Assembly (NCBI GenBank): GCA_903908245.1
Contig: CAIVRE010000008.1
Span: 1,432-65,431, forward strand
Direction: 5' to 3'
Length of the DNA stretch: 64,000 nucleotides
DNA from: Candidatus Omnitrophota bacterium
Lineage (GTDB): Bacteria; Omnitrophota; Gorgyraeia; Zapsychrales; Fredricksoniimonadaceae
Under the pieces are notes generated by a model that was not told the origin of the DNA, made no database searches, and saw only the letters and a program-made list of their open reading frames with translations. The position numbers and the translations under genes are program-made. Shown one piece after another: positions 1 to 48,000 of the stretch. How positions within the stretch are numbered: position 1 is the first letter of the stretch; every line of letters begins with the position of its first letter.

Positions 1-3000
1 CCGCCACGCCACAGAAACAACATCACCTGAAAGAACAGCCCGGATCTCCCGCTCTAAAAGAACATTAGACTCATGGGAAAATTGCAGGAAAGCGCCGAAT
101 TCGTGCGTCAGTGTCAATGCAAAAGCAAGGGGATCAGAAAGAAGGGGCTCATCGAAGAAGACGCCCCGGTCGGGAATAAAAGAACCGTCCAGGACCTCCG
201 AAGGCCCGGCCCGTACCTGGTCCGCGCGCTTCAAATAATCCAGGAAAACGTCAAGCGAAGCATCGCCGAACAATACGCGCAGCGCCTCAACAGCTTCCTG
301 CGCCAGCGGATCATTCAGGAGCGGGCGCATGTCCACTATCCGAAGGCCCTGCCACACCCTCCTCAAACGCGCCTGCTCGGCCTCAGCCTCGGCCATGCCC
401 CGGCCAGGCTTCAAACGCGCCGGATCCAAAGGCCTGCGTTGTTTCTCCGGGAAAAGATGGCGGATCGGTTCCGCATTCCCCGGCGTCCCCGGCCGGACGA
501 CCTGCTCCAGGAACGCGTCCACATCAAAATAATAAACCCGGCTCAGCGCGCGGGGCGATGCCAGCTTATTGAACTGCACGGAGAAGCGGCGGATCCTTTC
601 CCTGGAATCGATCAGGATGACCCGCTTGCCATCCTCGATCTGCTGCAAGACCAGGCTGCGCTGATTCTTGCTGTCACTGACAAAATGAATGCGGAAGAAC
701 TTGCGCAACGGGACATCAGCCGCATGAAAATGTTCTTTCTGATAAGACAGGATCTCCGTGATCGCCCTAAGGATATTATTCTTGAACAGCCACAACTCAT
801 CCACGCTCAACGTCTTTCCCAGCTCGGAATGATAAAAAGCCCTCATGACATAATATTCGATATCCCGCATCGCGATCAGGTCGCGCCATCCATAACGCGG
901 GAAACTCAGCGCCAGCATGGTCACAATGAACCCGAAATATAACGGGGCCAGCGTCAGGACATAAGCCGAGGGATTAAGCACGAAATCCCTGTACTTCAAA
1001 CGATGCCACACCAGGACACAGAAACGGGCGATCCCCCCCAGGCACAGCAAAAATATGGATATCATGATCCCCAGCGCGGGATTCCCTGATGCCACCCCGC
1101 CGATCAAGGCCGGGATCCCCAGGAACTTCACAAAACCCAGAGTCCCTTCTATCCCCAGAACGATCTTGCGCACGCGCGTCATGACCGCGTCACGGTCGCC
1201 ATTCAAGGCCGAACTGTATTTCGCGATAAAACCCAGTATCCCGCGATGCTTCGGCTCAGGCAAAGCGGCCTTCTTTGCAATGGCCCTGCGCGCTTTCATT
1301 GAACGGGCCTGGGACCGGATCGCGGTCCTTTCCGTCGGCTTCGATTCATGGATAGCGACCTGGCTTACAAACCAGTCGATCTCCTGACGGGAATACCCTT
1401 CGACAGATCCCGATAACAGGGTCCGGACAGCGGATCCATCAAGCCCTGCCGACCAGCACCAGGTCCCGTCCTTCAACCGCCCGGCAACCGCCACATCTTC
1501 CAGAGACCGGACATCGCCCCCGACCGATGCCGTCTCCCGGGCGATACACAAGGCCATCTGCGCGATCTTCAGGAATTCTTTTGCAAAAGCCGGATACACT
1601 CTTGCCGCAAGGCGCATTCCGCGCGCAGTGATCAAATGCGCAATGGACGCCTTCCTGACAAAAGTACGCGGCCGGTAGATCTGGACAAAATATTCCTTCA
1701 CATAACCGGGAGGGGAAACATCCAGGGGGCGTTCCAACACGGGTTCAAGCCCGGGGAATTTATCAAAATCATACGCCAACTGCCCCGAGACAAAAAGCAT
1801 GACCACCCGGCTTTGCGGCGACATTTCCGCATTGATCTTTTCCTGAAGCCGCGTACGGAAAACCGCCGCCTCTCCCTGGTCAGAGGAATACGCATAAAAG
1901 AAATAGAAGATGTCAGTGCCTGTCCAGTCAAGCTGGAACGCGTCACCCTCATGCAAAACAATATCGGCCTCACCCACGATCTTTTCCTGGCGGGCTCTTT
2001 CCAGCGCCAGCCGGGATATCCGCGCAAGGGCCGGATCAAGTTCCGCCGCCACAGCCGTCATCCCGAAATATCCGCACGCCAGAAGCGCACCGCGCATATC
2101 CGCCCCTGATCCAAACTCAAAGAACCGTTTACCGGCCAATGCCCCGGCCTCCCCCAGCGCGGCGAATACTCCCCATAAACTCTCTATGGGTGTCGGAGAA
2201 TAGATCGTCCCGTTATCCAGCGTATCCCCGTCGTAACTCTTTGCATGCTTTTCATACACATCCTGCAAAAGCGCTTCCACGCGCGCACGCTTATCCTGCG
2301 GCTGCTCTCCTTCTGCCGGAACGCCTCTTTGATAAGCCGTATTAAAATATATTTTAATGAAATCCCGCAGGCTTTCCGGCGCGGTATCCATAACGGTGAA
2401 ATGATCCCGCATACTCTCCGACGGAGCAAGGCGATAAACAGCCCGGAGGGACGCATCGGGGATCCACAGCAGCGGCTCACGGCCGCCGGAAACTGTCTGC
2501 ACAAAAGCGGCATCTTCCTCCCGCGGCGCTAACGGCTGGAAATGGAACCTGGTGACCGCCAGCGACAACAGCAACGGATTGATGACCGTATTATGGATAC
2601 GCATGACTTCCGGAAAACGCGACAGGAACTGTGCGAACAAATGTCCCGCCAGGCCGCGGCCGCGCAGGTCTTCACGGACCCAGATCCCGCGGATGCCAAG
2701 CATATGCCCGTCTTCCTCGGCGCCATCCTCGTGCTGCTGGGCATACATAAAAGCCGCTTTTTTCCCGTCGGCGTCATGAACGTCCAGCGAATGATACGAA
2801 TCACCGATATCGATCGTCCTCATGCTGAAAGAGCCGGGAAGATCCCTCTTCGTCTCAGGCCCGGCCCTGTCGCCCAGCGTAAGCGGCGCCTCGGGATTAT
2901 CCGAATTGTGCATAAAATGCATCAGAACATCGCCAACCACCGCGCCCAGGAAACCACACACCGGCATCGCCAAAAACCACGGCGAGAAAAAGAACGCTCC

Positions 3001-6000
3001 GGCGCCCCCGGCCAGCACCGTTCCGGCGACCGCAGCCAGGCGGATCTCCAGGGTACCCTGCAACCGCGTTTCACGTTCCATCTCCGTCCGATTGTTATGG
3101 GCCATTTCATAACGCAAAGAGAACGCCATAAAAATTTCTATCAACGGCGCAATGAACAGCTCGGTCAGGCGGCCAACCTGTGCCGGCGAAGGACGCCAAA
3201 GGCCGAAGGTCATCTCCCGCACCCAGCCGAACACCCGGCGGCCGAACACATAAGTCTCCGGCAGGGTCAAGGGCGCGCCACCCCGCGGTAACGGAATGAC
3301 CGGAGCGCTTCCGGTCAGGATCGCTTCGACCAGGGCCCTGGCCCTTCTGAACCGCACACTGTCCGCCGCCTGCTCGTGCAGGATGATCCCCTGCAAATGA
3401 CAGAAGAACAGGTCACGGGACTGTGCCGAACGCTGCGCGACCGTACGGGAATACCAGGATAAAAGGATATCGCACACCGCCCCGTCCGGCAGGCAGCTGC
3501 TGATCACGCTCATCAGGGACTTGTCGCCGAAATTGTCGATCCGTTCATCGGTCACCATCCCCAGGAACGCCGCACCGGCCGCGATCCAGGACGCCCCCCG
3601 GCGAATATTCTCGTCGTGATTAAGCAGCATTTTCTTCAAGGCCATCGCCATAACATCCGCCGCGGCCGGGGCGAAATGCATGGCAATGACGTTCGCCATC
3701 GAGAATTCTCCGGAATGTTCGCTGGCATAGCGGCATATCCCGTCAACGGAAAGGTGCCACATCCGCTCGCCTTCATCGGAAACGTCTGCGCGCGGAAGGC
3801 GCCCCTCGCTCATGATCGACCTCAGCCCTGACAGAATATCCCCCACCACCTCCTTGCGCAGCATCTCGGCCCTGACGATCACCAGGACCCCGTCCACCCG
3901 CTGAACCGCCTTGCCGCCCCGGGAAAGAAGGGCCTCCAGCTCCGGCTGTAATGAAATATCGTCCTGTGAACAGATCGCCATCACATACGACCGGCGCCTG
4001 ATCACATCTGTCCCGATATGGATCCAGACGCGTGACTTGCCATCATCAAGGCGCTCGCGTATCGCGGCAATGACCGACGGCAACAATCGTTCGTACTGCC
4101 CGTGGTCCGCGTAAAAACGCTGGCTGATACTGACCCCCGGGGCATAGGACCCTTTGGTATCCAGCAGGATATCCTGCGGGGAAGACCGATGGATATCGTA
4201 CGCCGCCGCCGAAAATTCCTCGAAAAGACGGCCGATCCGCTCCCTGGACAGGCTAAGGACGGACGCGACAAGGCGGACCGTCTCTTCATAAATAGCCGGG
4301 CAACCGACCATGTTCTCCGTGAAATTCAATGTATCCGACATGATGCTGTAAACCGTCAGCCATGCGATCAAAGGGTCAAGCACGAGCGCGCTGGCCCCGT
4401 ACTCCTGGCTGATCATGAACGCGGCCGAAGCGCCCTTCTCGATGCGGCTCCCCTGCCCCGCGGCAGTCCCCGGACGGGCCGGATGATGGTCGATCGTCAG
4501 CCACGTGGCATGGCCTGTGGAATCCACCTGGACCGCATAGGAACGGCGCAGCAACGCAGGCAGGTCGACCTCTTCCGTAAAGCACATTCTGCTCAGGACG
4601 CCGCCGTCCAGGACCCGCGCAAACACAAAGCGGATCAGGTCGTCAACCTTCTCCCTGGCCCCGAACAATACCGGGGCAACAAGGACATCGCGGCGGCCAA
4701 GGACCGCAAACTGGCAATGCAGCAGATAAGCCGTATTCATCGCGCTGACGAAGGAATCGATATCCATATGATCCGCAAAAACGACCACACGCTGACGATC
4801 GTCCGACGTGTCCGCCAGTGCCGCACCCAGGTCCTGAGCAAAGAAATCGCGGGCCGTCATGGGAGCCCCCGCCTCTCCTCTGGTCCTCACCAGCGCGGCC
4901 GCCTGGCGGATGACCGCATAGGACGGCAAACGATCCCCCCTCACCCTGCCGCGGGCCAGATCGATAAGGAAGTCCCCTTCCGCGATCGTCGCCGCGCGGT
5001 GATCACCCGAGGCAAATGCCTTGAGTTCATGGACCAGGGTCGTTTCAAAGAAAGGATCATTCTGCACGGCAAGGAGGATGACAGGAAGGGACCGGTCGCC
5101 GTTATTGGCACCAAGAAAAATGTTCTGCCTATCCGGCCCGGCGAGAATGCGCCCGCAGCGGCGCACCTCCTCGATGAAGGCGGATTCTTTCGGATACGTC
5201 CGCACATACCAGGCCAGCACCGCCTGCACACGCGGATCCCGCATCACATCCGCGAATCCCGGGAATCCCGCGCCGGCCAGCACGCCAAAACGCGCCACCA
5301 CTTCCTGCTCGGTCCTGTCGGGGCACGGTTTGGCACGGTCTGTCTTCTCGCCATTGATCAAGGGCCTGGCAGCGGCAAGCGCCCGGCGCAAACGGCGATC
5401 GAACTGACGGGGCGCCTGCTTGAGGATAATGCTCTTGAACATCCGCCGGGCTTCGACCGAAAGATCGATCGTGGAGGCTTCGACCGAATCAAACCAGGCG
5501 ATCGGCACTTCCAGAACACGCGCGCCCGCCAGTTTTGAGAGCAGCAGCGCTTCCGTGTCCCACGAAAAGCCGCGGTCCTGCACATGCGGAAGGATCGCGC
5601 CGATGACCGCGCGTTTGAAAAGCTTGAACCCGCGCTGGGTGTCTTCGATCCCCCTCAAAGGCGGCAATCCCCAATGAATGATCAGATTAAAGATCTTGCT
5701 GGAAATATACCGCTTCAGCGGGACATGCTCACTCTCGCCGCCGGCAGTCCAGCGCGACCCGATCGCGACATCCGCCTGGCCGTTAACAATAACCGAGGAC
5801 AACAGCGGCGCCAATAACATATTCGTCGATATATCCAGGTCAGTGATCCCGATCAGTTCCGCCCAACCATCACCGTACGCCTCCTGGAACCCGCGATAGA
5901 CCGCGCCGCCCTTGCGGCTGGACAGATATTTCTTTTCCGGCGGTGTCATCACGATCACACGGACCATGTCCATGGGGAGATCATCGGGAAGCGCGATACC

Positions 6001-9000
6001 GCGGGCACGGTATTCATCCCGCACACGGACCCAGGACGCCTTGAAATCCTCCCAGATCGCGCGAACACACCCGGCAGACGCCGCACCCGGCGTGCCGTCA
6101 TCAACAAAATAATACCTGAGTTCCCGTGAAGGATTTTCCGACATCTGGACCAGGGCCTGCAGGAACTTCGCGCGGAGGGCATCTTCCCCGTTAGGATTCT
6201 CCCGGCTATACGGCATGGACCGCGCCATCTCGTTGAACATGGGGATGATCCACGCTTCGCGGATCACACGCCCGACAGGCGCGAGGCCCCGGTTCACGGA
6301 CGACGCTTCGCTGAACTTCACCTTCTCTTTCCCGGAACGCGGCTCAAGAGGAGAATGTTCCACCGGGCCGGCACGAGGCTCCTCGGCTTCACGCTTCAAC
6401 TTCGCCGTTCGAACAACGGCCCTGTTCCGGCTTAAGGCACGAATAACCAATACCGCGAGAATACCCAGCGTCACAATAATAGAAAGCTTGATCACTAATG
6501 GCGAAACCCCGATCGCGGACAATATCACCGGCGCCGCAAGCCAGGCATGGCATGGCATCCCCTTCTCCGAACGCCCGTCACCGGTGAAAACCAGCCCAAC
6601 GAACTGCTTGAATTCCGGCGAATCCAAACCAGCCTGTGCCGTGATCGATGCCGCGTCCAACTTCAGGTCTTCCGCCATGCCGCGCAAAATACCATAGATC
6701 TTCCGGGGATCCCCGCTGGAAGCGATCTGTTCAAGAGCGTCCTGCCAGACACGGCCCGGAATATGTTCAAGACCAAAATTGCCATCATATTCAACCAGCG
6801 CATTACCCTGTATGGTATACAACACCAGGCGCCACAGCTCCCCGGCCATCCTGCGGGTCGCGTTGTAAGCGTCAGTGGTATCAAAAAACGTTGTACGGCT
6901 TTCCGCGGACAGCCAGCCTTCTGCCTGAACCTTCCGTCGGAACGCATAAAAATTCGCCATGGTCCTGCGCTGCTGGACAGGGCTGGCGATAACGATGACC
7001 CGCACCGCAGAACGGGCCTGACGCCTTGCTTCAAGCCAGGGCAGGATATTCTGGAAATTCTCAAGCGTATTGGTGGACGCCGTCTCAAGCATGATCCGGC
7101 CCAGGGCCGGGGCACCGGGATGCTCATGGCGCAGGACAGCCTCAATAAGGCCCGCTTCACTCACTAGCGGCGCGCGGGCATTAAAGAATGCCATCTTCTC
7201 ATCGAGTTTCATGGCCTCGGACATCATGACATCGACAATGAGCCGGTATTCCGGGTGATCCATGGACGCGATCTCAACACCCTCGCGCAATCGTACCGTC
7301 ACCCCGCGCCTTAACGCCTCTCCCAGCGTTTTCCAGGTCAGCCGCCCGCGGCCGCTGGTGATAACAAGCTCCCTCACGTCCCCTTTTTCAAGAAGGCCAT
7401 ACGCCAGCGCCCATGTTTCCGGGACACACGACGCGCACAACACGGCCGCATCATACACGCCTTCCCTGCGTGACAACGCCCGGCCTCCATGAACGGTCAG
7501 GAAATCCACCAATGGCGCCAGCGGGATACGGACCGTCAACCGGGTCCCAGAGGGGATCCCCTCGCGCTCACCCTTGCGGAAACTGACCAGCTCCATGGAC
7601 CCGCCCAATCCCCGCGCGTATTCCCCGATGATCAACAACCCGCGCCCCCCCGTCCCCTTGGGCGATACCAGAGGGAACCTGGACAGATACCGCAGAGCCG
7701 CATCCATGTCCATCACGCCGCCCTCGGCAAAGAAACGGTCCCATTCCTGCAGGGCAGGATTTGGGCCATTCACTTCCCAGACTGTCCGCGTAGAATCCTC
7801 GTCGGCCAGCCAGGCCCTCGCGCCCTTCTCGATCGCGGACGGGTCGATCCCCTCACCCAGGTCACGGACCGACAGGCACAACGCGCCGTCGTCAATGACC
7901 GCGCAAAAAGCAGGCGGAGCGTCTTTGGGAGAAAAAACGACCGCGTTATTGAGCATCTCGAAAACGATCATCCCGATCTGATGCGTATCCATATCCGGCA
8001 GACTGGACGGCAGGTCGATCAACACCTCAAGCGAAGCCCCCGTCGGCGAAGCAGGATCGCTCACCTGCGCCCGGACCTCCTGTTCCACCGCGGAGACCAG
8101 CCCCGGGGCTGGAACAGCCTGCGGACGGGACATCACGGACAGTCCTGCAAAAACAGGGTCCAGGACATCATCGAGGAACAGATTGCGCGTCTTGCGCCGG
8201 CGCCCCTCGGCAAGAATATCCTTTTCAATACGGTCCAGTATCATGGAAAGCTCTTCCGGCGACTCAACGCGACGGATCAGCTCGTCCATGCGGCCATGCT
8301 GCAACAATCCATACGCCAGCAGGGCCCCGCGGCGATGGTCCGGGTCGCCATAGACCTTTTCCAGAAAATCGCGCGCCACCGTCACATATTGCTCAAAGAC
8401 CCTGAATTCCCCGCCGCAACGGTCAACAGCAGCCTCAAGCGCCGTCGCGATAAAGAACTTGAAGATGTAATATCTCTCTTTGGGAGACCACAACTCGGAC
8501 TCCATCTGCTGGAGAAAATCCAGGAACGCATCACGGTCCCCCGGCCTGAACTGCCGATACTGCGACTGTGCCATCGCCAGCGGAGAGAACGGCTTGGCTT
8601 CGGCAAAACGCGCCGCCAGCACCCCCAGAAGCTCCAGGATCTCGCGGCGCTCCCTGACATTGTTCTCGTCGGTCATTTCCGTCACGACACCCCGCGCGCG
8701 AAAAACCCGGTCGACCCCGTGCCACCCCTCCGCGCGGGACAACCGCCGGCGAACGCCCCAGGGGATACGCCGCAGGGCTTCCCCCGGCGTTGTCACCAGC
8801 GCCCTGAAATACGCCGGGGACAAAACCTCCCGACGAGTGCCATTGCGGATGGTCTGTCCGCTCAGCGGCGCCGGAAGCTCAACGAACACATCGTCCATAC
8901 CCTCCAACTGACACGCAGCAAAATATTCATGCCACCCCTGCACGATCTCGCGGCGTTCATTGCGCCCGAAATCATACCGCCCGCCGGCCAGGGCCATCAA

Positions 9001-30000: not shown

Positions 30001-33000
30001 GACCATCTCGGCATACAACCGGACAAGAATGGCCTGCGCGGCACGGCGTTTGTCGAAAGTATTCACCAGGCTCTTCACATAACCGGAATTGAGCACCGCG
30101 CTGATCTTGTTCATGCTCATCAATGCCTGAAGCATCGACTCAAACGCATTCGCCGCATTCTGCTCGGAAGCCTCCACGCCGTACAGCGCCTTAAGCTCCG
30201 CCATGAACGCCGCGATATCCCCGGCCGCGGCAAGTCGGGCAAGATCCGCGCCATCAAAGGCATTACGGGCGATCGTATAGCGGAAATACTTCACGTTGCT
30301 CATCGCCGTGTTAAAACGCGCCCTGGTCATCCAGCGGCGGAAAAGATGGCCGGAAAGAATATTGAGCTGCTGCAGCCTGGCTCCGATACGAGCCTTAAGG
30401 TCCGCCTCATTCCTGTAAGCCCCTTTAAGCTGACGCTCCCGCACGATAAGCTGCGCCTGCGACAGGGTGAAGCCCATCGATTCGAACGTCTGGACGCCAT
30501 CCCCGTTCACATCGGTCCTGGAACGGTTGCGCAACTGATAGAACCGGTGGCCGGCGAACGGCAGGAAGAACCCGATCGTAAGCAGAAGAGCGATCATCCC
30601 GCCGACAAACCAGCGGGCCCCGATACCGGCCTGCTCGAGCGCGCTCATCCAGGTCGAACCTTCCTTGCCTTCATACGCCCCGACCGCCGGGTTCTCGGCG
30701 TTGATCTTGACCTCCTGGCCGTACTGCTCGACATTCGCGATAACATTGTTGTATTCACGGTCCACGACCTTCTGGCCGATCCACCCGAACGGGCCATTGC
30801 GGAACACATCTTCCATATCAAAGATCGATGAATACGGCGTCGTATTATGGCTGAAGCGCTCCGCGGTCCAGACGCGGCGGCCATTCTTGAGCAGCATCTG
30901 ATGGTCCTTGTTGACCCAATTGGCCGCGACCTCATAACCGCTATCCGTCGCCAGCTTTTCCGTGACCAGCTGCCAGACATTCCCCTGCTCGTCGGCCCAA
31001 ACCTTGTTGACCATGCCGCGATAGGCATATTCCTTGCCATCGACCATCCGGTTAACAAAGACCGGATAACCGTTCATGTAATAAACGCGCAGGGTCATGG
31101 CGCTGTATTCGCGATGTTCGTAATACAGCCCCGTCGTGAGGTTAAAACGCGTATCGACATTGCGGACCTTCTCGATCCCCTCACGGCTGCCCGTGTAGGT
31201 GACCATCGACGTGACCGGATCGAAATCCGTATAGGTGGTCTCGCGCAGGACATTACTGCTGCCCGCGACGGTAATAATGCCGGGAGCGATAACGATCTGG
31301 CCGCGGGACAAGTCGCCCATCCCTTTGCCCCAGAGCTTGTTGATGCTAACCTCACCGCTCATGCTCACGCGGGCGATATCACGGGTCAGCGGATCATTGG
31401 GGACCTGATAACGGCTGGCATAGGCCGCGGCTTCCGTATAGGTGCCGTTACGCCAGATCAACGGGATCTCACGCAGCTGCTGGATCCTGCTGTCCGCTGT
31501 CAGCCCGACCACCGCAAACTCGGCGACCTGGCCGTCCACGACTTCAGATAATGCCTTATAACCGTTCGAGTGCAGCCGATAGAGGCGGCCGAATGCCAGG
31601 TCCGTGTTCCCGGGCATCTGGATCATGTAACCATCGGTCGGCTTATCCGCGCTCCAGGCGGCGTTAAGGATCACATCCTGATTACTGCCCGGACGGAGCA
31701 CCGCGACAATAACACGGGCATTCACATCACCATGGATACGATAATTCACGGAGATCTGGCCATAACGGGTCTCAACGGCTTTATCGACAACGATCTTGTC
31801 CAGCGGCCTGCCGGCCAGCCCGAGCTCGCTGAGGATCGCCCTGTAACCCGTCTCAAAACCATTCTCGACAACAGTCCCGTCATCGCGCGTGACCATGTGG
31901 TCCTTGTTCACATAGCCGAGAATATTATCGCCGGCTGTCCCCCGGACCATATCCAAAACAGCCTTCAGGTTGGTCGTTTCAGTCGCAACACCGAGGACCT
32001 TCTCTCCGACAACAAAACTATTGCCCTTCAGTTCCGCGAGATAGGTGGCTCCAACATTCGCATTCGCGACATCCCTGATATAAACGCTATAACCATCGCC
32101 AGGCACACGTTCGATCTTGCCGATCTCCTCGTTCGTATTGCGGTCGACAATAAAGAACTTGTTGTTCGTGGCCGGATCAAGATCATCCTCTTCCGCGATG
32201 ACCACGTCATGGATATTGGCACCCACGATGGTATATTGCGTGCGGATCGCCTGGCCGATCACCGTTCCGAAATCGATCTGATAACCCGGATTAAGCTTGT
32301 AAATATTCCGTAACGGGGCTTCTTTATAACCAACAATGACCTTGCCGTCGACCGGAACGCCATTGGCAAGAACGGTCGGATAAACCTCAACATATTCCTT
32401 GCCCTGCTCCGCTTTATTCTCCGCGCTCTTGATAACGCCCATGACCCGGTCCAGGATGCCGTGCACGCGGCGTTCATAAAGCTGGACCGTACGGCCCTGC
32501 AGGACAGGATCCTCGATCAGCGCCCCGATCTTTTTCGTGTCCGCGGCATACGAACCGTCCAGCAAATAAGTAACCCGCCCGGAAGCGACATCCAGCACCG
32601 TAGCTTTGGCGCGATTCTCTGGAAGGAAGATCATTTCCACCACATCATCGTCGAACGACTTTTCTTCCAGGGTCGGGTCAACCGCCCTGCGGGCGTTATA
32701 ATCCAGCGCCTCCTGCGACGTCGCGATCCGGGAAAGTTCATAATATTTCGAGCGCACAAAGTCATAGGCGCGGGCATCCTTCCTTAAAAGATCAGCGCTC
32801 ACGAAGAACGGCGCTTCAGGAACATTCACCAGGAAGAGATCCTTCATGCCTTCCCCGCTGAGGAGCCGATATTCCATCTTGCCGGTATAAACATGGACCA
32901 GGCGGAAGAACTCGACCGTATTGTTATTCTCGTCAAGCCGCTGGATGCTCTGCACCTTCCCGGCCAATTCTTCGGCATTCGCCATGATCTGCGCCTCGCG

Positions 33001-36000
33001 CATCCACTGGGCAACCCCGTTATTGCCGACAACCAGGCGATAATCCCTCACGAGCTCCGCCATAGTCGTCGCCGTAATATCGATCGGGGCCACCAGCTGG
33101 TTGGCCTTGAGCGTAACCACCATCTGCAGGAACGGACGATACACAACTCCATCAACCCTGACGAACTTTTCCTTGCCCTGCGCCTGGATGACCGCTTCGC
33201 CCTCGTCGAACTTCCCGTTGCGGTTCTCATCCTGATAATAAGGATACCCGTTATTCCAGCGGACATGCTGGAGCGCGGCGCGGCCTTCCCTGATCTTGCC
33301 CAGGAGATAAGACGAATCCTGAATTTCAAATTCCGGCTGTGCTGTCCTGGAAACGATCACCGTCTTGAACGTTCCATCCGCCAGCTCTTCAAAAACCTCA
33401 AAACCATTCTTCAGGGCTTCGATCTCGGCATTGATCCGCACCACGCGCGCCTCGATGGCCTTCACGCCAGGCTCGAAAACCTTGACCACCCCGTTCTCGA
33501 CCAGGACCATCGTATCCGCGCCGAAAACCCTGCCATTGATCGCATACAGGTTGCTCTGGCCGATCTGCTGGGCGCCCTTGGTATAACGGGCCGGCATGAA
33601 CGCCTTCACATCATCCATGCTGCCCACCACGGTGGCTTCCTTGCCGACAACGATATGCCCGAACCCGTTGATCCCGTCAATGCGCGCCTGATGCTCAAGC
33701 TTCTTGTTGGCCACATCCACCTGCCAGGCATTAAGGGTCTTGACCGACGGCTGGAAAATGCCCGCGATATCGCCGCGGAAATTCAGCTTCACGAACCCGT
33801 CCTCGGAAAGGCCCAGCACCTTCGCCTGGGCCTGGACTTTCTCTCCCGCCCAGCGGACGACCACCAGGCCATCGGTATTATCCACCGCCCTCGGCAGGCC
33901 GGTATTGTAGAAGATCACGCCGCCGCGGTTCAGCCCGCTCAGCACGATATCCTTGACCGCGTCACTGCCTTCCATGGAATACTTCATCTGGTCGATGCCC
34001 TGGCGGATCTTCTGCACCAAAGCCGCATCGGTCAGGCCGGGACGGGTACGGAACCCGTCAAACTCGCGGGCATCGTCAACCACCGTACGGGTCATGCCGC
34101 CGAACGAAGCCCAGTTATACCAGGACCGGCGGAACTCGTCGGTCACATAATCAGTGAAAATATTCCCCTTGGCCGGAGCGCGGACCGCAGGCTCGATCAC
34201 AAGGGCTGCATTGGTCCGGCCAACAGCCTGCATGGCCCGGGCACGATCAGGGCCAAGGTCCTCAACGCGCACAGCCACCGTACCCGCGGCCGGATATTCC
34301 GACCGGCTCGCCGTATAAATATCAATGATCCGCGTTGAATGCGGGACCCACTCGCCATTACTGCCTTTTTCGTAAGGACCGCTGTCATCCTTGCGGAACA
34401 CGCCCATCAGGGCGCCCGTATCCTGACGATAGACCGCGACCCAATTCCCATTGGCCACGGGCAGGCGCTCATTTAACGCGGCGCTGACGCCCGCTTCCAG
34501 GCGGTTCTCACGATTGCCTGTCTTTGTGCTGTTCCCGCCTTCATCAGGAGAATAGAAGGACGCTTCGCCCATAAACGCCCGGCCATTAGAGATCTGCGCC
34601 GCCGGGCCATTCTCCTGGCGCAGCGAATCCGTTACCATCTCGACGATCTCGCCCGAAATAGGATGACGGACAACCTGCAGGATCTGGTGGCCCTGCCTGT
34701 CGTAACCATTGATGAACGCTTTCTCTTTAAGGAGGGCATTGGTCGAAAGGCGGGCCTTCATGACCATGGTATCAAAATTATCAACATTGAACTCGCCCTG
34801 CAGGAAGCCCCTGGTAATGAAGCCCGGGGAAGCGAACACGTGGCGGGCGATCAGCTTGCCATTCTCGATCTTGCAGATGATCCCGTGGATCGTCGCGCGG
34901 CGGGCATCGCCCTGGTCGTTCTGCTTCCAGCCATTGGTCGCCTTATCCAGGGAATAGAAATGCTTGTCGCTGGTATTCGGCTGATAGATCTCCAGATAAA
35001 CCGTGTTGCTATCGCCATTGACCGCGGCAAGATGGTTATAAACGAGCTGATACGGGCCATACGCCAGCTGATCTCCCAGGTTCTCGAAATTGAAATGCTT
35101 GTTCACATCGCCGAAAAGTTTCCACAGCGGCGTAAGCTGATGGCCGGTCAGGCGGTCCATCGCGCCGGGCAGGGCACGAACAGTATCGAGCGCGCCCAGG
35201 CTCATCACCGTAGCCTCACGCGCTTTATTGTCCTGGTCATGGAACTCAACATCGGTCCAGTTCCACACCAGGGTGTTGAAGATGCCCTGGACCGGATTCT
35301 TGTCCGTATGATAAAGCTTGGTCTGGCCGCGGCCCGCATGCGTAACAGCGTAGGAATAGATCTCGGCCGCATGATCCGCCAGGATGGCCGGCCCGGCGTA
35401 AGCGCTGAATCCGGTGCCAATACCATTCTGCATCAAACCGGTAACGATCTGATAATCGGTCGCGAACCGCTTGCCCGGATGATCGATATCCAGGATCAGG
35501 GTGTTCGGGCCTGTACCATTGATGGAAACCATCGGGAAGTTATAATTCATGACATAACTAATGGCGACCGGGAAATTGGCATTGACCGTGCTGACCCCCT
35601 CCAGGGCCTTGTTCTCCCGAAGCTTCTTGTCAATATTCTCCAGGCGCTCGGCTGTCGTCTTGCGGCCATCCTTCTCCTTTTGCGCCTTTTCCAGGTTTAC
35701 CAGCGCGCCATTTTTAGGATCGTTCAGGTTCTGGTCCAGGGAAGCCGCGCGGACATCCTGCTCTTGCTTGGCCTTCTCTAATTTGGCAACTTCATCCTGG
35801 ATCGCCGCAATACCCACCTGAGCCTGTGTCAACTGCCCTTCACGGCCTCCATTCTCACCAACCGGAGCAAGATTAGCCGCAAGCATCCCGACAAGCGTGT
35901 TGGTATTCGGCCCCTTAATATCATAATTAATGCGAATACCACGAAGTGAATGATCTTGGAAGAAGCTCTCTTTAAGCTTGTAGGTTGCCCAGACATGTTC

Positions 36001-39000
36001 CGCACGGAGCATATCATCACCTGCCAACGCCTGAGGATCGACCATCATGGCCAACTTACCACCAACCGTAGCCTCTTCCACCTGCTGACGGGTCTCTTCT
36101 GTAACATCTTCGGGCAACCCGACCATCATTCCCGTATTAGCAATGGTCACAACTTTATCGCTGGCATTGCGCGTAACATATACAACACGACGACTCGGCT
36201 CATTATCCTTAGATTTATATTCAATAACACTGCTGACCGTAACCACAATGCGATCTTGCTCAAAAGAAACCGGCGACTTAACAACATGACTGACACTTGC
36301 CGTAGTTGTTAAGCCTGAAACCGCTGTGGCGGAATTATTATCATTGGCCGAAGCAATACCAGCTCCGGCGAACAACACCACCGCAACGATAATGACAATG
36401 ACCGCCCTCCTGATCGGGGAGATGACGGCCGAAAGAGCGGCCAGGGCGATGCGAACAAAGTGCATCGGGGCGGGCACTAATGCCTTTTGACCCTGGCCAG
36501 TGACCATGGCGGAGATACCGCCAATGATCTGGGTGACGAACCCTAAATTTTTATTGTTGGGATTATTGGTATCAGATATACGGCCGGAGAGCTCCGCCGA
36601 CACACCTTCTCCGGTGATGTTCGTTCCCTTGGCGGAACAAACTCCCGGATGCTCGCTATTCTTGCCTGAAGCGTTTGAGGTAAGTCTATCTACAGGGCCC
36701 TGACCGACACTTTCCACACCCTTCACACCTGGCACACCCTGCGCGGAGTAGGCTCTGTTATCGTAACCAGTTCCCACACTTTCCACACCCTGGGCATTGC
36801 CGTAATCGCGAGGAGCCCTTGCTCTGTCCAGAGATCCGGCAGGCACACTCATCACGATCCTGGTGTTACTTCCTACACTCTCGGTATTCGCGCTGTCTTT
36901 ATTACCAGCGATCACACTCCGTGCATAGGTGGTGCCAACGATCACACTACGGGCACCCTTACTTTCATTGCTAGTCCGCGCGTTGCCATTACTGGCAGTC
37001 GCAGTTCCTTCATCAGCGGCAGCACCAGGCACACTTTGGGCATCCGTACTGGACACACCTGTGTCGGTACCCCTGTCAGAGCGGGTAATCCTGGCCGACG
37101 GACGAACCCCGCGGTTCAACTTCAGGGCGAGCCCATTGACCGCTCTTAACACTCTCTCCACCGCGGGCACAATACTGGCACCCTTGGCAAGACCAATGTT
37201 CAGAGCCCTTCTATTCAGAGCCTTACCGATCCCGGCCGCATACCCCAAGATGGCGGCAAACACCAGGACAACACCAGTACGACCCGCAGAACGATGCAAC
37301 GGTACTTCATCGACAGTAACCGCACCGATCACGGCACGGGTATTCGCTACCTTACTCGTATTCGCTACTGTACTACCATTGCCCTTGGCGTGATTGTCAG
37401 CATTCGAACGGTCAGCCAGGACATTAGCCCGCTCGTTGCCTTTACTGTTATTATTACCAGCCTTCACCAGCGCTTTAGCGCCATTCACTACACCCTTACG
37501 AACTGCATTCACAACACTACGAACTACCTTCACTGCATTGCTGCGAACTGCATTCACTGCATTAACAGTACGTACAACCTTACTTGTATTCGCTACTGTA
37601 CTACCATTGCCCTGCTCTTTGTTCTCAGCATCGGTGCCAGCGGTCAGAGCTAGCGCTACATCGACGCTCTTTTCAGCGTTGCGATCATTTAACTTCACCT
37701 CGGCAACCGGCCTGCCGTTGGCCTTAAGCACAACATTAACAGTATCACTACTATCTCTCTTGCCATTCTCGACCGCTCCGCCCCTGAGAGAGGGACTGCG
37801 GCCGGGCTTACGACCTCCATCGCCGGAACGAGACGCAAGTTCCGAATCGGACGGCCCTTTCAGCCGTCCGGCAAAATATCTGGCCCCAAGAACAGCCAAA
37901 GCAAGTACCACACCAAAGACGATCACAGGCAGAGCCCCGGCTCCACCAGCCGCGGCTCCGGCACCCGTTGCCGCTGAAGCCGTATTCGGCGTTAAGGTAA
38001 AGAGAAGCCCCATCAAGCCCATTCCACCTGCTATAGGCCCGGCGCCGGGCAATTGAGGCCCTTGAGGCACTACAGGCATCGCAGGCACAACCGGTGCTGG
38101 CGCAGGCCCTGGTGTCGGTGTAGGCCCGGGTGTTGGCGTTGGCGGTAACGATGTATTAGGAATTGTATTATTGCCTGTAGGCGGAGGCGGCGTATTGAGC
38201 GGATCCGCCTTGGCCGGAGCATCGCCTTCATCCTTAGGCTTCTGCTCATTAGCCTTCAACAAGTCAGGGATATTAACTTCCATCGTAGAATTAGCCGCGA
38301 CCTGTCCAGTCTGGACATTCCCGGCCCTGAACCGATTGATCGCCCTTCTAATGAATCCGGGTTTAGCCGGGGCAGTAGCTTTCTCGAGGCCACTCTGGAC
38401 ATAATAATCGTGTTCTGCCTGCTTTTGCTCGGCTGTTAAAGCCTCGGCCTGAGCAAGAACATCAGAGACAAACTGTTCATCCGCCTGGTACGGAGTGCCG
38501 CCCATAGAATCTGTTACGATCTGCAGGGCCTTACGGACAGTATCCTGATCAGGCTGTTTCTGATCCTCAGCCAGCAGGCCAAAGAACTCAGCCTGCCGGA
38601 CCATGATCGCGGTCAACTTCGGAATATCCCCGGCATTCTTTGTGCTATCCAGGCCAAGCAGACGGATACCAATGGGCTTGAGCAGGATCGGGGCCATCAG
38701 ATCAGCCGGGATCTCGATCTCAAAGGACCGGGCCGCCTGCACCCCGGGATATTCCTTAATATCAAAGGCCGGAACAGTGACCTTGCGGCCATCAACATCC
38801 GCCCTCACGTCGCCATTATCGCCCCTGGAGAAGGCCGCACGGACAGACTGACGGTCATCCCCTTTAAGGATAACGACCAGGCCGATCTCCTCACCCTGCT
38901 CCTGCGCAAAACGGATCAGAATATCGCCCTTGACCAGGCCCAGAGACGGCACATCTTCGGCAATACGCTGTTCCTGAAGGTATTTTTCGCTATCTTTAAC

Positions 39001-45000: not shown

Positions 45001-48000
45001 TTTGCTGTCTGTCGCCGTCCCAATTTTTACAAGTGATCCGCTCTTATCAGAAACAAGCGCATCGTAAACTAACTTCAAGGCCGTCATATCCATACGGCCG
45101 ATATAAAGCGAACGATGCGCAACCTGATAACTGGCATCTCTTAAAGCCGTTTCGCGACCCGCGCCCATCCGGGAAGCACTTTCCAATTTGCCATCAAAAG
45201 AACCTGAATCGCCCACCAATTCACGCATATGAGCAAGCACCTCTTCAACCGCATTCTCAAGGAAATAAATACCGGTGAACATACTGCCTAACTTTTGACC
45301 GGGATCCTGCACACGGACCTGAGTATCAAACAATAATGAGCGTCCCTTGGTCAAACGGGTCAAACTATGGACATCCAATTCATGCGGGAGAACACCCGCC
45401 TCGAGGAACGTATGGGCGTACACTTCATTAAGGAAGACCTCAACACCCAAACGGATCGATGTATCATCTGCCAACGCCGCACTTGCCTTCTTGGTCAATT
45501 CCGGATCAATAATGATCTTTTTATGATTCTTGTGCTCATTCAACCGTTCAATGAACTGATAGCGTTTAAACTTCTGCACATCCGCCAGGGAAACATTCTC
45601 GCCGCCCTTGTTAGAAGCTTCAATTTTCGCTCTTAATCCGGCGTAATCAGCTTTTTCCTGATCATTCAAATCAACGATGCTTTCAACATCCAAAGAACCA
45701 TCTTTAAACTTGATACCACGATCCTTACCCAACAAATTCTCTCCGGCCGCGCGTATCATTGTTGTCAACTTCTCCCGGGCGGCTTCAAGCGGCATTTCCT
45801 GATCCATCTTGCCTTTTAAATTTTTATAAACTTTCTCAAGCATCCCCTCATCAGCACCACGAAGAGCCCCGAACCCGGCATTAATTTCCTGCTTGCGCCC
45901 AAGCAATTCTTTCTGCGCTGCCGATAACTCGGCAAGTTTCTCCCCTGCGGCCTTCCCGACCTTCTCCATATCCTGCATATCACTTGCTTCCAAAGAAAGG
46001 GTCGTCCGCAGCCAATCCAATTTCTTTTGATTTTCTTTAATGATCGCTTCAGCCGACTGCCCCGCTGCAATAAGTTTCGCCACTTTCTTCGTACTATCCA
46101 ATGAATCACTAATATCCTTTGCCATCTTTTCATACTGCGCCATCACCTGTTGATACGGATCGATCTTCCCAATAGCTGCCTTAAAAGCATCAAAATTAAT
46201 AAAGGCCTTCCGCTCTTCATTCTTAACAGAGAAGATCATGCCACGAGTATCAGAATCAAACCATCCAGTCATCTTTAACGCATTCCAGATCGAACGATCA
46301 AAATCTTTAGAAAACTCCTGCATCTGCAGAACGCCATCACGGCTTATCATCTGGGCCAAACGATTGACCTCATACATTTCCGAAGATACCAACGCCGGGC
46401 GGGTCTCTCCCGGAATATACATCAAATGACCAACAAGGCTGTTATCCACAAGATTACGAACGGCACCATCTTTGATATCGATCTTGTGTACCATTGGGTC
46501 AAACTTGAACGCGCCGGAAGCATTTTCAACGATCTTATGATACTCAAGGCCACTGCTTGTACTTAAGGTAGCAAAAGCCGCAGTATTATTTCCAGCGGAC
46601 GGATTAAAAAGAACATTATTCTGCACATTCCACACCATCCCGCGCGGAATGATCAAGCCGCCACCGAGCTGAATGTTCCCATTAAGGGCTTCATAATAAA
46701 CTGGCTCAAAATCCTGGATCTTGTAAACCGTTTTTCCGTCTTGATCCTGTTCAACAATATACCGCGGCGCATAACCGACACGGCGGGAATTCTGCCCCTC
46801 GGTCCTCGCCACGATCGGGCGCTGATCCAAAGCATTATTGATCGTCTTGCCCGTCCGCTCCAAATAAGCAGACAAAATCTCGTTCCTGGAGGCCTTTTCC
46901 ATCGTAGCCAAAGAACCTTCCACACGAGCACGCTGCACTCCTGAAGATACCTGGGCAACCGACACAACAGACTGCGTTAAAGCTTCCTGGGAATGCTGTG
47001 CAGCAATAGAACTGAATTCAGTCACAACTTGCTCAAAAGCCGTTTTGTACGCATCAGAACTCTTATAATCCCCACCCTTTGCTCTGATCGCATCTAATTG
47101 ACTGACCGCATCCTTCAGCATGGTTCTTTGCCCAGTGGTCAAATTAACATCCAATGCGCTAGCCACAAAGAAGTCCATTGTCCCAGGTGTACGCTCATCA
47201 ATAACTTGCGGCACCAATCCAATACGGGTCGGCTGTTGAACAATACCCGTACTATCAAGGACCGCTGTCCCAATAATATGCGCCAAACCGCGGACTTCCA
47301 CCGAGACGCCTTCAACAAAATCTCCCAGAAGAATGCGATGCGTCAAATTCACACGATCCGTCTCCCCATCCCTTTCTGCCTCTAAATAATTCGTTAACCC
47401 TGTTGAAACTTCCTCACCCTTCTCTGTCGTAAAATCCTTAACCCTCTCTTTACCAGATGCCAGCAATGTATCAAAGTTCCATTTAGTCCGGATCTCGTCA
47501 AATGCCACGCGAACTTTTCCGCCATCTTTTGCATTATAAATCTTATCCCAAAGAACATCTCTTTGTGCGCCTTTCTCCATCCATGCATCACGAATTTTCT
47601 TATCCCCAACCAATTTTACAACTTCATTCTTGATCGCATTCTGCAGCAACTCAGGATTCGTCTGAAGTAACTTATATACAGCATCACGGAATAAAGAATC
47701 ATGGCTGGAAACAAGGATCGTATTGGCACGTGCGTAAACCGGCTCAGTATTCAAAGGATCAAGAACCTTTGTTACCACATCATCACTAAACCACCTCTCC
47801 AAATATGTGATCGTATCTGCCTTTACTTTCTGTTCTAATTGTTCGCCGGATAATGATCCCTCAGCCTTGGCATTATTCCTATCTCTAACCCCCTGTTGAA
47901 ACTCATTGGCAATAGTTTTCACATCCCATTGACGCGCAATACCATACGCGATACGACCCACAATGTCCTGCGCCGCGCCGGAACGATCCTTGGCTGAACT

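Follow-up and report, generated by a model that had tools for sequence, protein, structure and literature searches.

The locus studied here raises the question of whether a single bacterial reading frame can hold more than a dozen unrelated enzymes and, if so, what kind of protein it would encode. An initial annotation of the window (the whole 64,000-base stretch of DNA that was analysed) had described such a string in the C-terminal 36 kb of one membrane-anchored polypeptide and had considered it unlike any known multifunctional enzyme. We consider it probable that the window encodes the inner part of a giant, non-repetitive, membrane-threaded Omnitrophota multi-enzyme protein, which would hold its enzymes at the cytoplasmic face and serve as a platform at the cell envelope.

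According to a six-frame stop count, one minus-strand frame, starting at window 63999, has no stops in 21,333 codons, and each of the other five frames has 259-1,332. The frame is open at both window ends, giving a protein of more than 21,333 aa, and because no stop codon is present, the term C-terminal is valid only with respect to the window itself. In window coordinates, residue i is 64002-3i..64000-3i, and the region covered by the initial annotation (window 1..36300) equals residues 9234-21333. Base composition is of the coding type in every 500-codon block (GC3 0.44-0.76, GC2 0.35-0.53), with a leap in GC3 from ~0.47 to ~0.65-0.75 at an uncharged linker outside that region (Table 1). Neither internal protein repeats in the giant nor notable DNA tandem repeats in the window were found. 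As the 64 kb contain no marker gene, the taxonomic placement is based on the names given to homologues of the modules.

The last ~9,000 residues hold about 15 different, non-repetitive enzyme domains, identified from Pfam, NCBIfam, PDB or homologue profiles, in agreement with the claim of more than a dozen unrelated types. All eleven families that had been named were recovered in frame and in the order given, and the retained motifs suggest that the domains are mostly catalytically intact. Control searches with Pfam at E<=0.01 gave no match, either on the eight longest plus-strand ORFs (4,722 aa) or on residues 1-7500. The chain of enzymes is real, although it begins only at about window 27,400 and not at 36,300, with no recognised enzyme domain between these positions. 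Recognised domains make up only ~30% of residues 9234-21333, and ~70% are without assigned function. Three further modules join the families first listed: DUF1152, a membrane module tentatively likened to glucan synthases, and a zincin-like module that is uncatalogued and present twice.

Table 1. Features of the giant reading frame, all on the minus strand.
Feature	Residues	Window position	Basis
Giant-gene part, 21,333-codon uninterrupted frame		1..63999	0 stops, coding-type GC3/GC2, repeat-free
79-residue uncharged Ser/Thr/Pro/Val linker	6593-6671	43987..44223	GC3 jump site
Processive glycan-synthase-like module (tentative), in multi-helix membrane region	12209-12477	26569..27375	Alignment to P0177
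Clan GH-A TIM-barrel, GH158-like	13199-13310	24070..24405	PDB 9oro_A match; GNEEE motif
Pro/Val/Ala-rich hinge adjoining membrane helix	13458-13498	23506..23628	Composition
Membrane helix, site of cysteine step	13531-13552	23344..23409	Hydrophobicity, charge
Calcineurin-like/PPP-type metallophosphatase	13593-~13790	22630..23223	Pfam, PDB, motifs
GDE_C amylo-alpha-1,6-glucosidase	15815-16221	15337..16557	Pfam E 7e-82; TIGR01561 2e-52
GH13 alpha-amylase-family catalytic domain	16229-16644	14068..15315	Pfam Alpha-amylase 2.7e-9
PEP-utilising enzyme, mobile His + PEP-binding domains	17302-17690	10930..12096	PEP-utilizers_C 7e-30
42-residue uncharged hydrophobic stretch	17752-17793	10621..10746	K/R-rich outer flanks
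Capless HAD phosphatase, motif DMDNT	17846-17937	10189..10464	Pfam, NCBIfam, sub-cut-off
DUF1152	18172-18279	9163..9486	Pfam E 1.6e-7
GHKL ATPase HATPase_c	18671-18828	7516..7989	Pfam E 1.4e-5
DUF218	18900-19024	6928..7302	Pfam E 2.7e-8
Codon within DUF218	18950	7150..7152	GGC (Gly) in window, TGA in ENA contig L023
Helical hairpin	19147-19186	6442..6561	Followed by basic flank, 7 K/R in 20 residues
GT2, dolichol/polyprenol-phosphate-sugar-synthase-like	19250-19529	5413..6252	PDB 5mlz 6.7e-11 (DPM synthase)
Zincin-like module (predicted), ~140 aa, motif LVHELKAFASGDH	19540-19681	4957..5382	Predicted fold
DHH/DHHA2 phosphoesterase, family-II-pyrophosphatase/exopolyphosphatase-like	19689-20240	3280..4935	NCBIfam 7e-3; profile A3
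GNAT acetyltransferase, motif RGRGLA	20398-20565	2305..2808	Pfam Acetyltransf_1 2.3e-3, under cut-off
Class-I SAM-methyltransferase-like module, motif FFEFGSGAD	20564-20744	1768..2310	Profile A1
Membrane helix pair	20959-21034	898..1125	Hydrophobicity
Zincin-like module, divergent copy 2, motif LTHEFGAFLQFSHE	~21252-21316	52..252	Local alignment

Among the glycan-acting modules, GDE_C keeps 81 of the 100 alignable columns with >=95% conservation among 111 ordinary homologues, and retains the Asp of its TWMD motif, which we take to be catalytic D1241 of Candida glabrata GDE. The adjacent GH13 domain matches a PDB pullulanase at 5e-14 and features the RLD nucleophile, LAEAL acid/base and GHD motifs; the same fusion is carried by fragments P0002-P0006. 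For the GH-A domain, the phmmer match to the GH158 structure has an E of 8.3e-5 when a 651-aa tile is the query and 7.9e-4 with a 4,500-aa tile, and the NE acid/base motif lies within GNEEE. The metallophosphatase scores 22.7 bits over residues 13593-13714 (Pfam Metallophos, gathering cut-off 21.5), matches PDB 2z72/1v73 at E 3e-7 and has its DVHG, GD, GNHE and HGG motifs. Residues 12209-12477 tentatively represent a processive glycan synthase, with 25% identity to P0177 (E 1e-12) and the motifs NIDAD, VAEDAL and IRKWS. The matching P0177 stretch itself exceeds the gathering score of Pfam Glucan_synthase (PF02364; E 1.1e-12), and since the giant's own Pfam scan of these residues is empty, the link to glucan synthases is transitive only.

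The PEP-utilising enzyme aligns with residues 149-510 of E. coli Enzyme I (5.5e-19) and with TIGR01417 (2.6e-26), retains the QSH, GTNDL and ICGD motifs and is without the HPr-binding N-domain. What had been called an FCP1/NIF HAD phosphatase is a HAD domain of IIIC-like type (Pfam Hydrolase 1.6e-4, DUF705 2.6e-3, TIGR01681 HAD-IIIC 2.3e-4 and TIGR01684 2.9e-4, all under curated cut-offs), whereas the FCP1/NIF subfamily was not recovered, with no NIF match in profile searches. Against their Pfam cut-offs, DUF1152 reaches 31.3 bits (27), DUF218 34.2 (27.6) and HATPase_c 26.0 (26.4), the latter with N-box, G1 and G2 motifs and a long ATP-lid insert. Further along, the GT2 module carries IIPMFNE, VDDG and DLD, and PF00535 is found in its homologues P0122 and P0123 (45-46% identical). 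The DHH module carries HMDID and IDHH; its homologues P0126 and P0127 are 37-38% identical across ~540 aa, and the homologue profile A3 matches PDB family II PPases at 1.5e-13. The GNAT-homologous stretch of P0133 matches Acetyltransf_1 at 6.8e-6, above the cut-off. For the methyltransferase-like module, which has more than 40 homologues in a family absent from Pfam, profile A1 (27 sequences) gave 2.7e-54 on the giant (hmmsearch) and 3.4e-5 against PDB methyltransferases. The second zincin-like copy aligns with residues 19607-19674 at a score of 59 (shuffles 28.9 +/- 4.8, 0/500 reaching 59), and the zincin-like HMM matches only its helix, without significance (E 0.19).

The interleaving with transmembrane helices and Pro-rich hinges was confirmed on both counts, with ~20 hydrophobic segments, a number that leaves out further amphipathic helices within 12395-12481. 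Within residues 15476-19146, where GDE_C through DUF218 lie, there is no hydrophobic segment except 17752-17793, which we read as a helical hairpin; the outer flanks of paired helices are K/R-rich and their turns uncharged. Helix 13531-13552 has no K/R in the preceding 20 residues and four after, and here cysteine rises about 11-fold, from 10 in the 13,552 residues ahead to 57 in the 7,781 behind (Fisher p 3e-16). Taken together, the cofactor needs, this cysteine step and the positive-inside charge pattern of the hairpins suggest a cytoplasmic-face location for the enzyme string, with the GH-A domain and the N-terminal portion outside. Upstream of the annotated region, a weak DEAD/helicase-like P-loop with Walker A GTGAGKS (res 7509-7605, window 41185..41475, minus strand; Pfam DEAD 6.6e-4, under cut-off, and no match in PDB) may be the divergent SecA_DEAD domain that such giants typically carry.

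The protein probably originated by fusion and shuffling of enzyme modules that occur elsewhere as stand-alone genes. From helix 13531-13552 on, helical hairpins would tether the chain to the cytoplasmic face, where its domains could reach PEP, ATP, NDP-sugars, acetyl-CoA and SAM. This string would start with the PPP-type phosphatase, GDE_C+GH13, the PEP-utilising phosphotransferase, HAD and DUF1152, and continue with the GHKL ATPase, DUF218, GT2, DHH pyrophosphatase, GNAT and methyltransferase, while the N-terminal 8.6 k residues, a beta-rich part (9220-11129) and the loop with the beta-glucanase-like GH-A domain would face outwards. Such a platform could co-localise carbohydrate handling and phosphoryl transfer at the envelope. 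Alpha-glucan would be mobilised inside the cell, the membrane would be the site where sugars are passed to a lipid or polymer, and glycans outside would be trimmed or attacked. Against this arrangement speak the stretches of the cysteine-poor zone that the parity model places inside, the DEAD-like P-loop in the part placed outside and, as described next, the N-terminus of P0126 and a possible single span at 15438-15456.

Alternatively, the enzymes might be mostly displayed outside or introduced into host or prey cells, digesting and remodelling prey surface polysaccharides, as proposed in the literature for Velamenicoccus archaeovorus and the 'Archaeovorins'. GH-A, GDE_C and GH13 cleave glycans, P0126, a stand-alone homologue of the DHH module, has a signal-peptide-like N-terminus, a hint that this module may be located outside the cytoplasm, and helix 15438-15456, if a single span, would flip the GDE-to-DUF218 block outside. 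However, the PEP, ATP, NDP-sugar, acetyl-CoA and SAM needed by the PEP-utiliser, GHKL ATPase, GT2, GNAT and methyltransferase are absent outside cells (a host cytoplasm, if reached by the chain, would supply them), and the substrate of GDE_C and GH13 is a glycogen-type storage glucan. Cysteine, moreover, is normal in the enzyme-dense part and nearly nil in the putatively exposed parts, and both outer flanks of the hairpins are positively charged, and we regard an external location as unlikely.

Still less likely, in our judgement, is a polyprotein, made as a single chain that is afterwards cleaved into individual membrane-tethered enzymes, for which the embedded zincin-like modules, or N-terminal C39/S8 peptidases beyond the window, might be the cutters. 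Cleavage has already been suggested in the literature, the two zincin-like copies mark module boundaries, one behind GT2 and the other behind the last helix pair, the module recurs in many long relatives, and there are Pro-rich and S/T/P linkers between the blocks, but the module has no canonical HExxH, the His, Glu and distal His are not conserved in every copy, and no cleavage sites are known.

The uninterrupted ORF stands, whereas its translation as one polypeptide is unproven, since L023, a contig of an independent and near-identical assembly, has an in-frame TGA at which the gene caller breaks its ORF. The two sequences differ at only 2 of 7,064 aligned bases, both in codon 18950, where chance is unlikely to put two changes, and in the final 48 bases of the contig. 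A split or decaying gene with a nonsense allele, or a continuity produced by assembly or polishing, is nevertheless very improbable given 21,333 stop-free codons in one frame that would not survive chimeric assembly over 64 kb, significant in-frame domains over the last 9,000 residues, intact catalytic motifs, a uniform coding-type GC3 pattern and a single discrepant codon in 7 kb.

The preferred reading, a membrane-threaded multi-enzyme protein, can be set beside its relatives. For four separate modules, the nearest relatives are pieces of very long ORFs from Candidatus Omnitrophota MAGs, and module-level homologues are found almost exclusively in such fragments from Omnitrophota. Every module relative with a source organism name is assigned to Candidatus Omnitrophota/Omnitrophica (P0141 and P0146 carry Omnitrophota names), and a few, such as P0126 and P0002, are named by function alone. 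The GDE_C relative P0001, occupying an entire 3.9-kb contig, is 61% identical according to the search tool and 57% over 400 aa in BLASTP, and the GT2 relatives P0123 and P0124 are 45-46% identical. Stand-alone versions include P0126 for DHH and methyltransferase-like proteins of 243-283 aa. Long relatives have merely one or two modules in common with the giant, in a different order.

Giant multi-enzyme proteins have already been published as the 'Archaeovorin' type (West-Roberts 2023) and as class 1 'multi-enzyme metabolic cluster' giants (Nielsen & Lui 2026), including the same repertoire and the same cytoplasmic-face reading (West-Roberts 2023; Nielsen & Lui 2026). Publication of this class makes the view of the chain as unlike any known multifunctional enzyme outdated. 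The suggested likeness to multi-enzyme giants from bacteria that live as predators or episymbionts is supported by the recovery of all named families, the lack of internal repeats, the Omnitrophota long-ORF relatives and the literature. One such relative, L024, is an open-ended C-terminal piece of a similar gene followed by PilZ, the same neighbour as the literature describes for these genes. Since its module relatives and repertoire match the published giants, the protein is, judged from its sequence, of a rare yet already described kind from tiny host-dependent Omnitrophota bacteria, and it matches the descriptions of both the 'Archaeovorin' and the 'multi-enzyme metabolic cluster' giants.

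The minus-strand frame beginning at window position 63999 contains no stop in 21,333 codons, against 259-1,332 stops in the five other frames, and as it stays open over 64,000 nt, the whole window is an internal piece of one gene, hereafter the giant. Start and stop codons are both absent from the window and the ORF is open at both ends; no ORF is listed under translation table 11 because ORFs running off the window ends are omitted. The initial annotation had called its domain string C-terminal, which is correct relative to the window, in which no stop codon marks the end of the protein. With at least 21,333 aa without a stop, the giant exceeds the length of at least 10,000 aa used by Nielsen & Lui, and the >30,000 aa used by West-Roberts is more than a 64-kb window can hold. 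The amino-acid composition is protein-like over the entire ORF, and 500-codon blocks have GC3 of 0.44-0.76 and GC2 of 0.35-0.53. Stop-codon reassignment was ruled out as the source of the long ORF, as TAA, TAG and TGA are all missing from the frame, and the plus-strand ORFs (at most 778 aa) were ruled out as true genes, being an antisense shadow frame with 0 Pfam matches. Rfam families were not found in the window, DNA tandem arrays were limited to four short, low-scoring ones, and the protein has no internal repeats at E<0.01 (best non-self internal match E 0.01).

Codon usage along the giant is mosaic, with GC3 of ~0.44-0.54 in residues 1-6500 and 0.63-0.76 thereafter, apart from lower values at residues 8501-9500. 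A 79-residue linker of uncharged Ser/Thr/Pro/Val sequence (window 43987-44223) sits at the switch (residues ~6,500-7,000, window ~43,000-44,500). The mosaic suggests an N-terminal part that has another history or was swapped in by recombination.

The giant had been described as one polypeptide, which holds for the uninterrupted frame in the window and is qualified by a TGA at codon 18950 in a near-identical contig of an independent ENA assembly (L023; ERZ18626419, BUCK21-1_SAMEA6872779_METAG-scaffold_6444). This contig matches window 10115..3052 with two mismatches, both in that codon, within DUF218 (window 7150-7152 GGC, Gly; L023 2964-2966 TGA; local 5-mers GTGAC and GGGCC), and across 7,064 aligned bases no other difference occurs; in L023 the ORF is split at the TGA by the gene caller. 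This codon may differ because of a real nonsense allele or a multi-nucleotide variant, or because of polishing. Reading TGA as Gly (genetic code 25) was rejected, as 7 kb contain a single such site and the window none. The 48 bases at the end of L023 (7065-7112) depart from the window sequence, have no match elsewhere in it and introduce an apparent stop at 7098; they probably reflect an artefact of the assembly end or a structural variant.

Tiled Pfam, NCBIfam and PDB-sequence searches of the giant's translation, together with homologue profiles for the DHH, GNAT and methyltransferase regions, retrieved the families that had been named from the sequence, and in the same order along the chain, from the clan GH-A hydrolase to the methyltransferase-like module. 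In total, ~15 different domains were found, none dominating by copy number, and only the zincin-like module was found twice. The string had been drawn over window 1-36300; it stands for the downstream part of that stretch, within which window 24,405 is the upstream limit of the named families and 27,375 that of everything recognised. Recognised domains cover ~30% of residues 9234-21333, and hydrophobic segments and Pro-rich hinges, located by hydropathy and composition, sit between the domain blocks as had been described.

Features located in the giant gene and its window (residues are those of the giant; E-values are from the searches named)
Feature	Window	Residues	Strand	Evidence
DEAD-box/helicase-like P-loop, Walker A GTGAGKS	41185-41475	7509-7605	-	Pfam DEAD 6.6e-4, below cut-off
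Synthase-like module, helix-rich membrane region	26569-27375	12209-12477	-	P0177, 25% identity, E 1e-12
GH158-like, clan GH-A, with GNEEE		13199-13310	-	E 8e-5
Metallophos		13593-13714	-	above Pfam cut-off; PDB 3e-7
GDE_C		15815-16221	-	7e-82
GH13		16229-16644	-	Pfam/PDB searches
PEP-utiliser, His domain and PEP-binding domain		17302-17690	-	7e-30; E. coli EI 149-510
HAD, IIIC-like		17846-17937	-	1.6e-4
DUF1152, not among the families first named		18172-18279	-	Pfam
HATPase_c		18671-18828	-	Pfam
DUF218		18900-19024	-	2.7e-8
GT2		19250-19529	-	6.7e-11 to DPM synthase
Zincin-like module, ~140 aa		19540-19681	-	
Zincin-like module, second, divergent copy		~21252-21316	-	
Methyltransferase-like module	1768-2310		-	
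Antisense shadow ORFs (examples), opposite the giant gene	7489-9825, 17698-19965, 24418-26313		+	no Pfam match

The catalytic motifs of these domains can be read in the sequence, including DVHG, GD, GNHE and HGG in Metallophos, the catalytic Asp, Glu and Asp of GH13, the QSH histidine, GTNDL and ICGD in the PEP-utiliser, the N-box, G1 and G2 of the GHKL ATPase, IIPMFNE, VDDG and DLD in GT2, RGRGLA in GNAT and FFEFGSGAD in the methyltransferase-like module. GDE_C retains the WMD aspartate and 81 of the 100 aligned columns with at least 95% conservation in ordinary homologues (19 are changed). For the HAD domain, the proposed FCP1/NIF subtype was not confirmed: DMDNT is there, no NIF match appears at E<=1, and the matches are to Hydrolase, DUF705, HAD-IIIC and viral-phosphatase models. 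The domain is a capless HAD.

When searched with the giant's sequence alone, DHH and GNAT reached 7e-3 and 2e-3, respectively, and the methyltransferase was without any match. An exhaustive phmmer search with residues 19530-20729 returned 76 matches. As a profile with four homologues, the DHH region matched family II pyrophosphatases at 1.5e-13 over both domains and PPX1 at 1.6e-5, and it has the HMDID and IDHH motifs plus a DHHA2-type C-terminal domain match that define the class. P0133, a homologue of the GNAT region, matches Acetyltransf_1 above the cut-off, and a 27-sequence profile of the methyltransferase-like module matches methyltransferases at 3.4e-5. Chance similarity, foreseen as an objection, was ruled out for the weak matches, as neither of the control sequences, residues 1-7500 and the antisense shadow ORFs (4,722 aa), yielded a Pfam match at E<=0.01. 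There was no PDB match in residues 5334-10333, no NCBIfam match in residues 9001-13333 and no homologue of residues 17700-18700 at 1e-5. The observed string is real and well above chance, and its interpretation in the initial annotation is essentially right.

Beyond these families, the zincin-like module recurs in 18 mostly very long proteins and has no Pfam match and no PDB sequence match. Its AF2 model, built with a 19-sequence alignment, has a pLDDT of 84.7, and a Foldseek search of this model against the PDB found nothing. In place of HExxH the module has the motif HELKA...H, which varies among the copies, and it falls short of the signature of a zincin metallopeptidase, in which the active-site helix bears HExxH or a variant of it and a third ligand binds the metal. 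The methyltransferase-like module represents a family of >40 cluster representatives with the motif LLDFGAGDLR, and Pfam models did not match any of four small members of this family.

Regarding the synthase-like stretch, the aligned part of its relative P0177 matches Pfam Glucan_synthase (GT48; 1,3-beta-glucan synthase) at 1.1e-12, and the giant retains D-x-D, ED and R-x-W-like motifs. The giant itself has no Pfam match in this region, and a tblastn search of the stretch against plasmids gave no match. We tentatively regard it as a synthase-like module placed just upstream of the glucanase-like GH-A domain, the link being transitive via P0177. For the DEAD-like P-loop region, there was no SecA_DEAD match and no PDB match, and a single-sequence AF2 prediction of residues 7450-8590 without an alignment had a pLDDT of 36; the P-loop may be a divergent form of the SecA_DEAD domain reported for Omnitrophota giants.

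The best match of the GDE_C domain is P0001, a protein filling a whole 3.9-kb Candidatus Omnitrophica contig (61% identity by the search tool, 57% over 400 aa by BLASTP), and matches to GDE_C among GTDB representatives were ordinary GDEs only, with 29-36% identity. The GT2 relatives P0123 and P0124 are Omnitrophota MAG proteins (45-46% identity), and P0141 and P0146, retrieved by the exhaustive search for the A2 module and the methyltransferase-like module, respectively, are named Omnitrophota. Wherever an organism is named, the closest homologues of the GDE_C, GT2, A2 and methyltransferase-like modules are Candidatus Omnitrophota/Omnitrophica MAG proteins, and it is via these homologues that the window, which is without a marker gene, is indirectly linked here to Omnitrophota. 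The Candidatus Omnitrophica contig L024 (1-4757) starts inside the long ORF P0124, with a GT2 domain 46% identical to that of the window; P0124, an open-ended fragment, represents the C-terminal end of a longer gene, and a PilZ gene directly follows it, a context of giant genes reported in the literature. Long relatives have only one or two modules in common with the giant and in a different order, and outside single modules no sequence similarity to any database giant was found. Stand-alone methyltransferase-like proteins of 243-283 aa exist, and the DHH module has a stand-alone homologue in P0126 (contig L026, 8299-10149; 616 aa), which is 38% identical over ~545 aa and lies in an ordinary, housekeeping gene neighbourhood.

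Hydropathy gives 23 hydrophobic segments, ~20 of them within residues 9199-21034. From residue 11643 onward, most occur as closely spaced pairs whose outer flanks are basic and whose turns are uncharged, as would be expected for hairpins inserted from the cytoplasm. The helix at residues 13531-13552 is preceded by a Pro-rich hinge without K/R and followed by four K/R, and cysteine rises across it from 10 in 13,552 residues to 57 in 7,781 (p 3e-16). From GDE_C through DUF218 (residues 15476-19146), the only hydrophobic segment is a 42-residue uncharged stretch (17752-17793), which we read as a probable hairpin returning the chain to the same side. The favoured topology would thus place the enzyme string from residue ~13,553 onward at the cytoplasmic face, tethered to the membrane, and leave the GH-A loop, the beta-rich stretch 9220-11129 and the 8.6 k N-terminal residues outside. 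The cytoplasmic side is favoured by the dependence of the PEP-utiliser, GHKL ATPase, GT2, GNAT and methyltransferase on cofactors of the cytoplasm, and by the cysteine step, the flank charges and the uninterrupted residues 15476-19146. However, topology from hydropathy and charge is crude, and several observations speak against this placement: helix 15438-15456, if a single span, would move the block after it to the other side; P0126, the stand-alone homologue of the DHH module, begins with a signal-peptide-like sequence; and the DEAD-like P-loop sits in the part placed outside. In the passages of Nielsen & Lui (2026, 10.64898/2026.06.07.730766) dealing with TM-only giants, the general reading is that of membrane-anchored proteins with their metabolic content on the cytoplasmic face. 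The helix at residues 13531-13552 (window 23344-23409) is the boundary for cysteine, which is nearly missing before it and at a normal level after it, and Arg replaces Lys towards the C-terminal part.

We consider it quite improbable that the chain is an envelope-glycan assembly line, instead of or besides a prey-digesting coat, with a self-cutting zincin-like module. In such a line, cytoplasmic GDE_C and GH13 would mobilise storage alpha-glucan, and the PEP-utiliser, the HAD and PPP phosphatases, the DHH pyrophosphatase and the GHKL ATPase would drive and regulate sugar activation. GT2 would load sugars onto polyprenol phosphate, and GNAT and the methyltransferase would decorate them. The glucan-synthase-like membrane module would export the polymer, and the adjacent GH158-like glucanase would trim it outside. 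The non-canonical zincin-like module, present twice here and found in many Omnitrophota giants, would cleave the chain into pieces that stay tethered to the membrane.

The giant proteins of Omnitrophota rank with the longest that are predicted in biology, and the one described here is a useful specimen, as its enzyme domains are unusually readable and their catalytic motifs intact, and as a cysteine and charge signature sets the probable outside part apart from the cytoplasm-facing enzyme string. The zincin-like and methyltransferase-like modules missing from Pfam, and the possible synthase-plus-glucanase pair, are leads applicable to hundreds of published giants. The picture of such proteins is unchanged, and a well-dissected example and specific hypotheses are added to it.

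Like NRPS/PKS and giant adhesins (RTX/Bap-type, Chlorobium chlorochromatii giants), the giant is a very long single bacterial ORF, but it is without repeated modules, carrier/condensation domains and Ig/cadherin/RTX repeats, and a repetitive adhesin or NRPS/PKS was rejected as its identity. Its putative synthase-like core and GH-A domain resemble the arrangement of a membrane-embedded polysaccharide synthase with a partner hydrolase (BcsA/BcsZ; fungal FKS1 of GT48), as the D-x-D, ED and R-x-W core lies between membrane helices and is followed by a glycanase-like GH-A domain in a predicted outside loop; it differs in that the PF02364 link is transitive through P0177.

The eukaryotic glycogen debranching enzyme (GH13 transferase and GH133 glucosidase; PDB 5d06, 8zeq) also combines both domains in one chain, and the 'WMD' Asp of the GDE_C-type (alpha/alpha)6 glucosidase and the GH13 Asp/Glu/Asp are retained in the giant. 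In contrast to that enzyme, the order is reversed, with GDE_C ahead of GH13, the two domains are nearer to bacterial/archaeal stand-alone types (30-40% identity), and the pair is embedded in a >21,000-aa protein. With PTS Enzyme I, PEP synthase and PPDK, the PEP-utiliser shares the QSH mobile His domain, the PEP-binding TIM barrel with GTNDL and the catalytic-loop Cys, whereas it is without an HPr-binding N-terminal domain and an ATP-grasp nucleotide domain. The match to Enzyme I spans EI residues ~143-514 with scores far below equivalog cut-offs (TIGR01417, 92 bits against a cut-off of 342), and no HPr-binding domain, as needed for PTS Enzyme I (ptsI), was detected at the PEP-utiliser; it is thus classed as a PEP-utilising module and not as Enzyme I.

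The closest comparisons are with other Omnitrophota giants, reported across classes of the phylum (Seymour et al. 2023, PMC10066038). In the passages of Nielsen & Lui (2026, bioRxiv 10.64898/2026.06.07.730766) describing class 1, the 'multi-enzyme metabolic cluster', this comprises long proteins of the class Gorgyraeia with a Pfam vocabulary that includes methyltransferase, HATPase_c, GNAT, HAD and sugar metabolism, and most long proteins are noted to be sequence singletons. As described in those passages, the giant agrees with this cluster in having many distinct Pfam families with none repeated, a unique sequence with a common architecture vocabulary, the 'module 1' content (methyltransferase, HATPase_c, GNAT, HAD) along with sugar-metabolism content, and a TM density of roughly 2%, and in being read as membrane-anchored with cytoplasmic metabolic content. 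It differs in its GDE_C and PEP-utiliser families, absent from the main text of that paper, and in DHH, DUF218 and DUF1152, which are not among the families named in those passages; its zincin-like and methyltransferase-like modules are invisible to the class 1 catalogue because they lie outside Pfam.

The type protein of the Archaeovorins, 39,678 aa long, comes from Candidatus Velamenicoccus archaeovorus LiM (West-Roberts et al. 2023, bioRxiv 10.1101/2023.11.21.568195; Seymour et al. 2023, PMC10066038). Archaeovorins have many TM helices and N-termini poor in domains, and carry glycosyltransferase, hydrolase, methyltransferase and dikinase-type domains (West-Roberts et al. 2023, 10.1101/2023.11.21.568195). 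Most members of this class have a SecA_DEAD/SecA preprotein-binding domain, and type II secretion-like genes upstream and PilZ and sugar-import genes downstream are a trait of its neighbourhood. The giant differs in having no Pfam match to HEAT, TPR, NUDIX, GT5 or GT1 at E<=0.01, and its only candidate for SecA_DEAD is the weak DEAD-like P-loop, although the domain could lie beyond the window. What it has in common with the Archaeovorin is an enormous single ORF with many TM helices, named relatives in Omnitrophota, domains highly divergent from ordinary homologues and a long domain-poor N-terminal part (residues 1-7500), a likeness that covers window residues, the true N-terminus being beyond the window. 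Glycosyltransferase, glycoside hydrolase, methyltransferase and PEP/pyruvate-dikinase-type domains are likewise common to both, and the giant also holds the GNAT, HAD and HATPase_c domains of the class repertoire. It belongs to the published, still enigmatic class of Omnitrophota giant multi-enzyme proteins, and the kind of system is not new.
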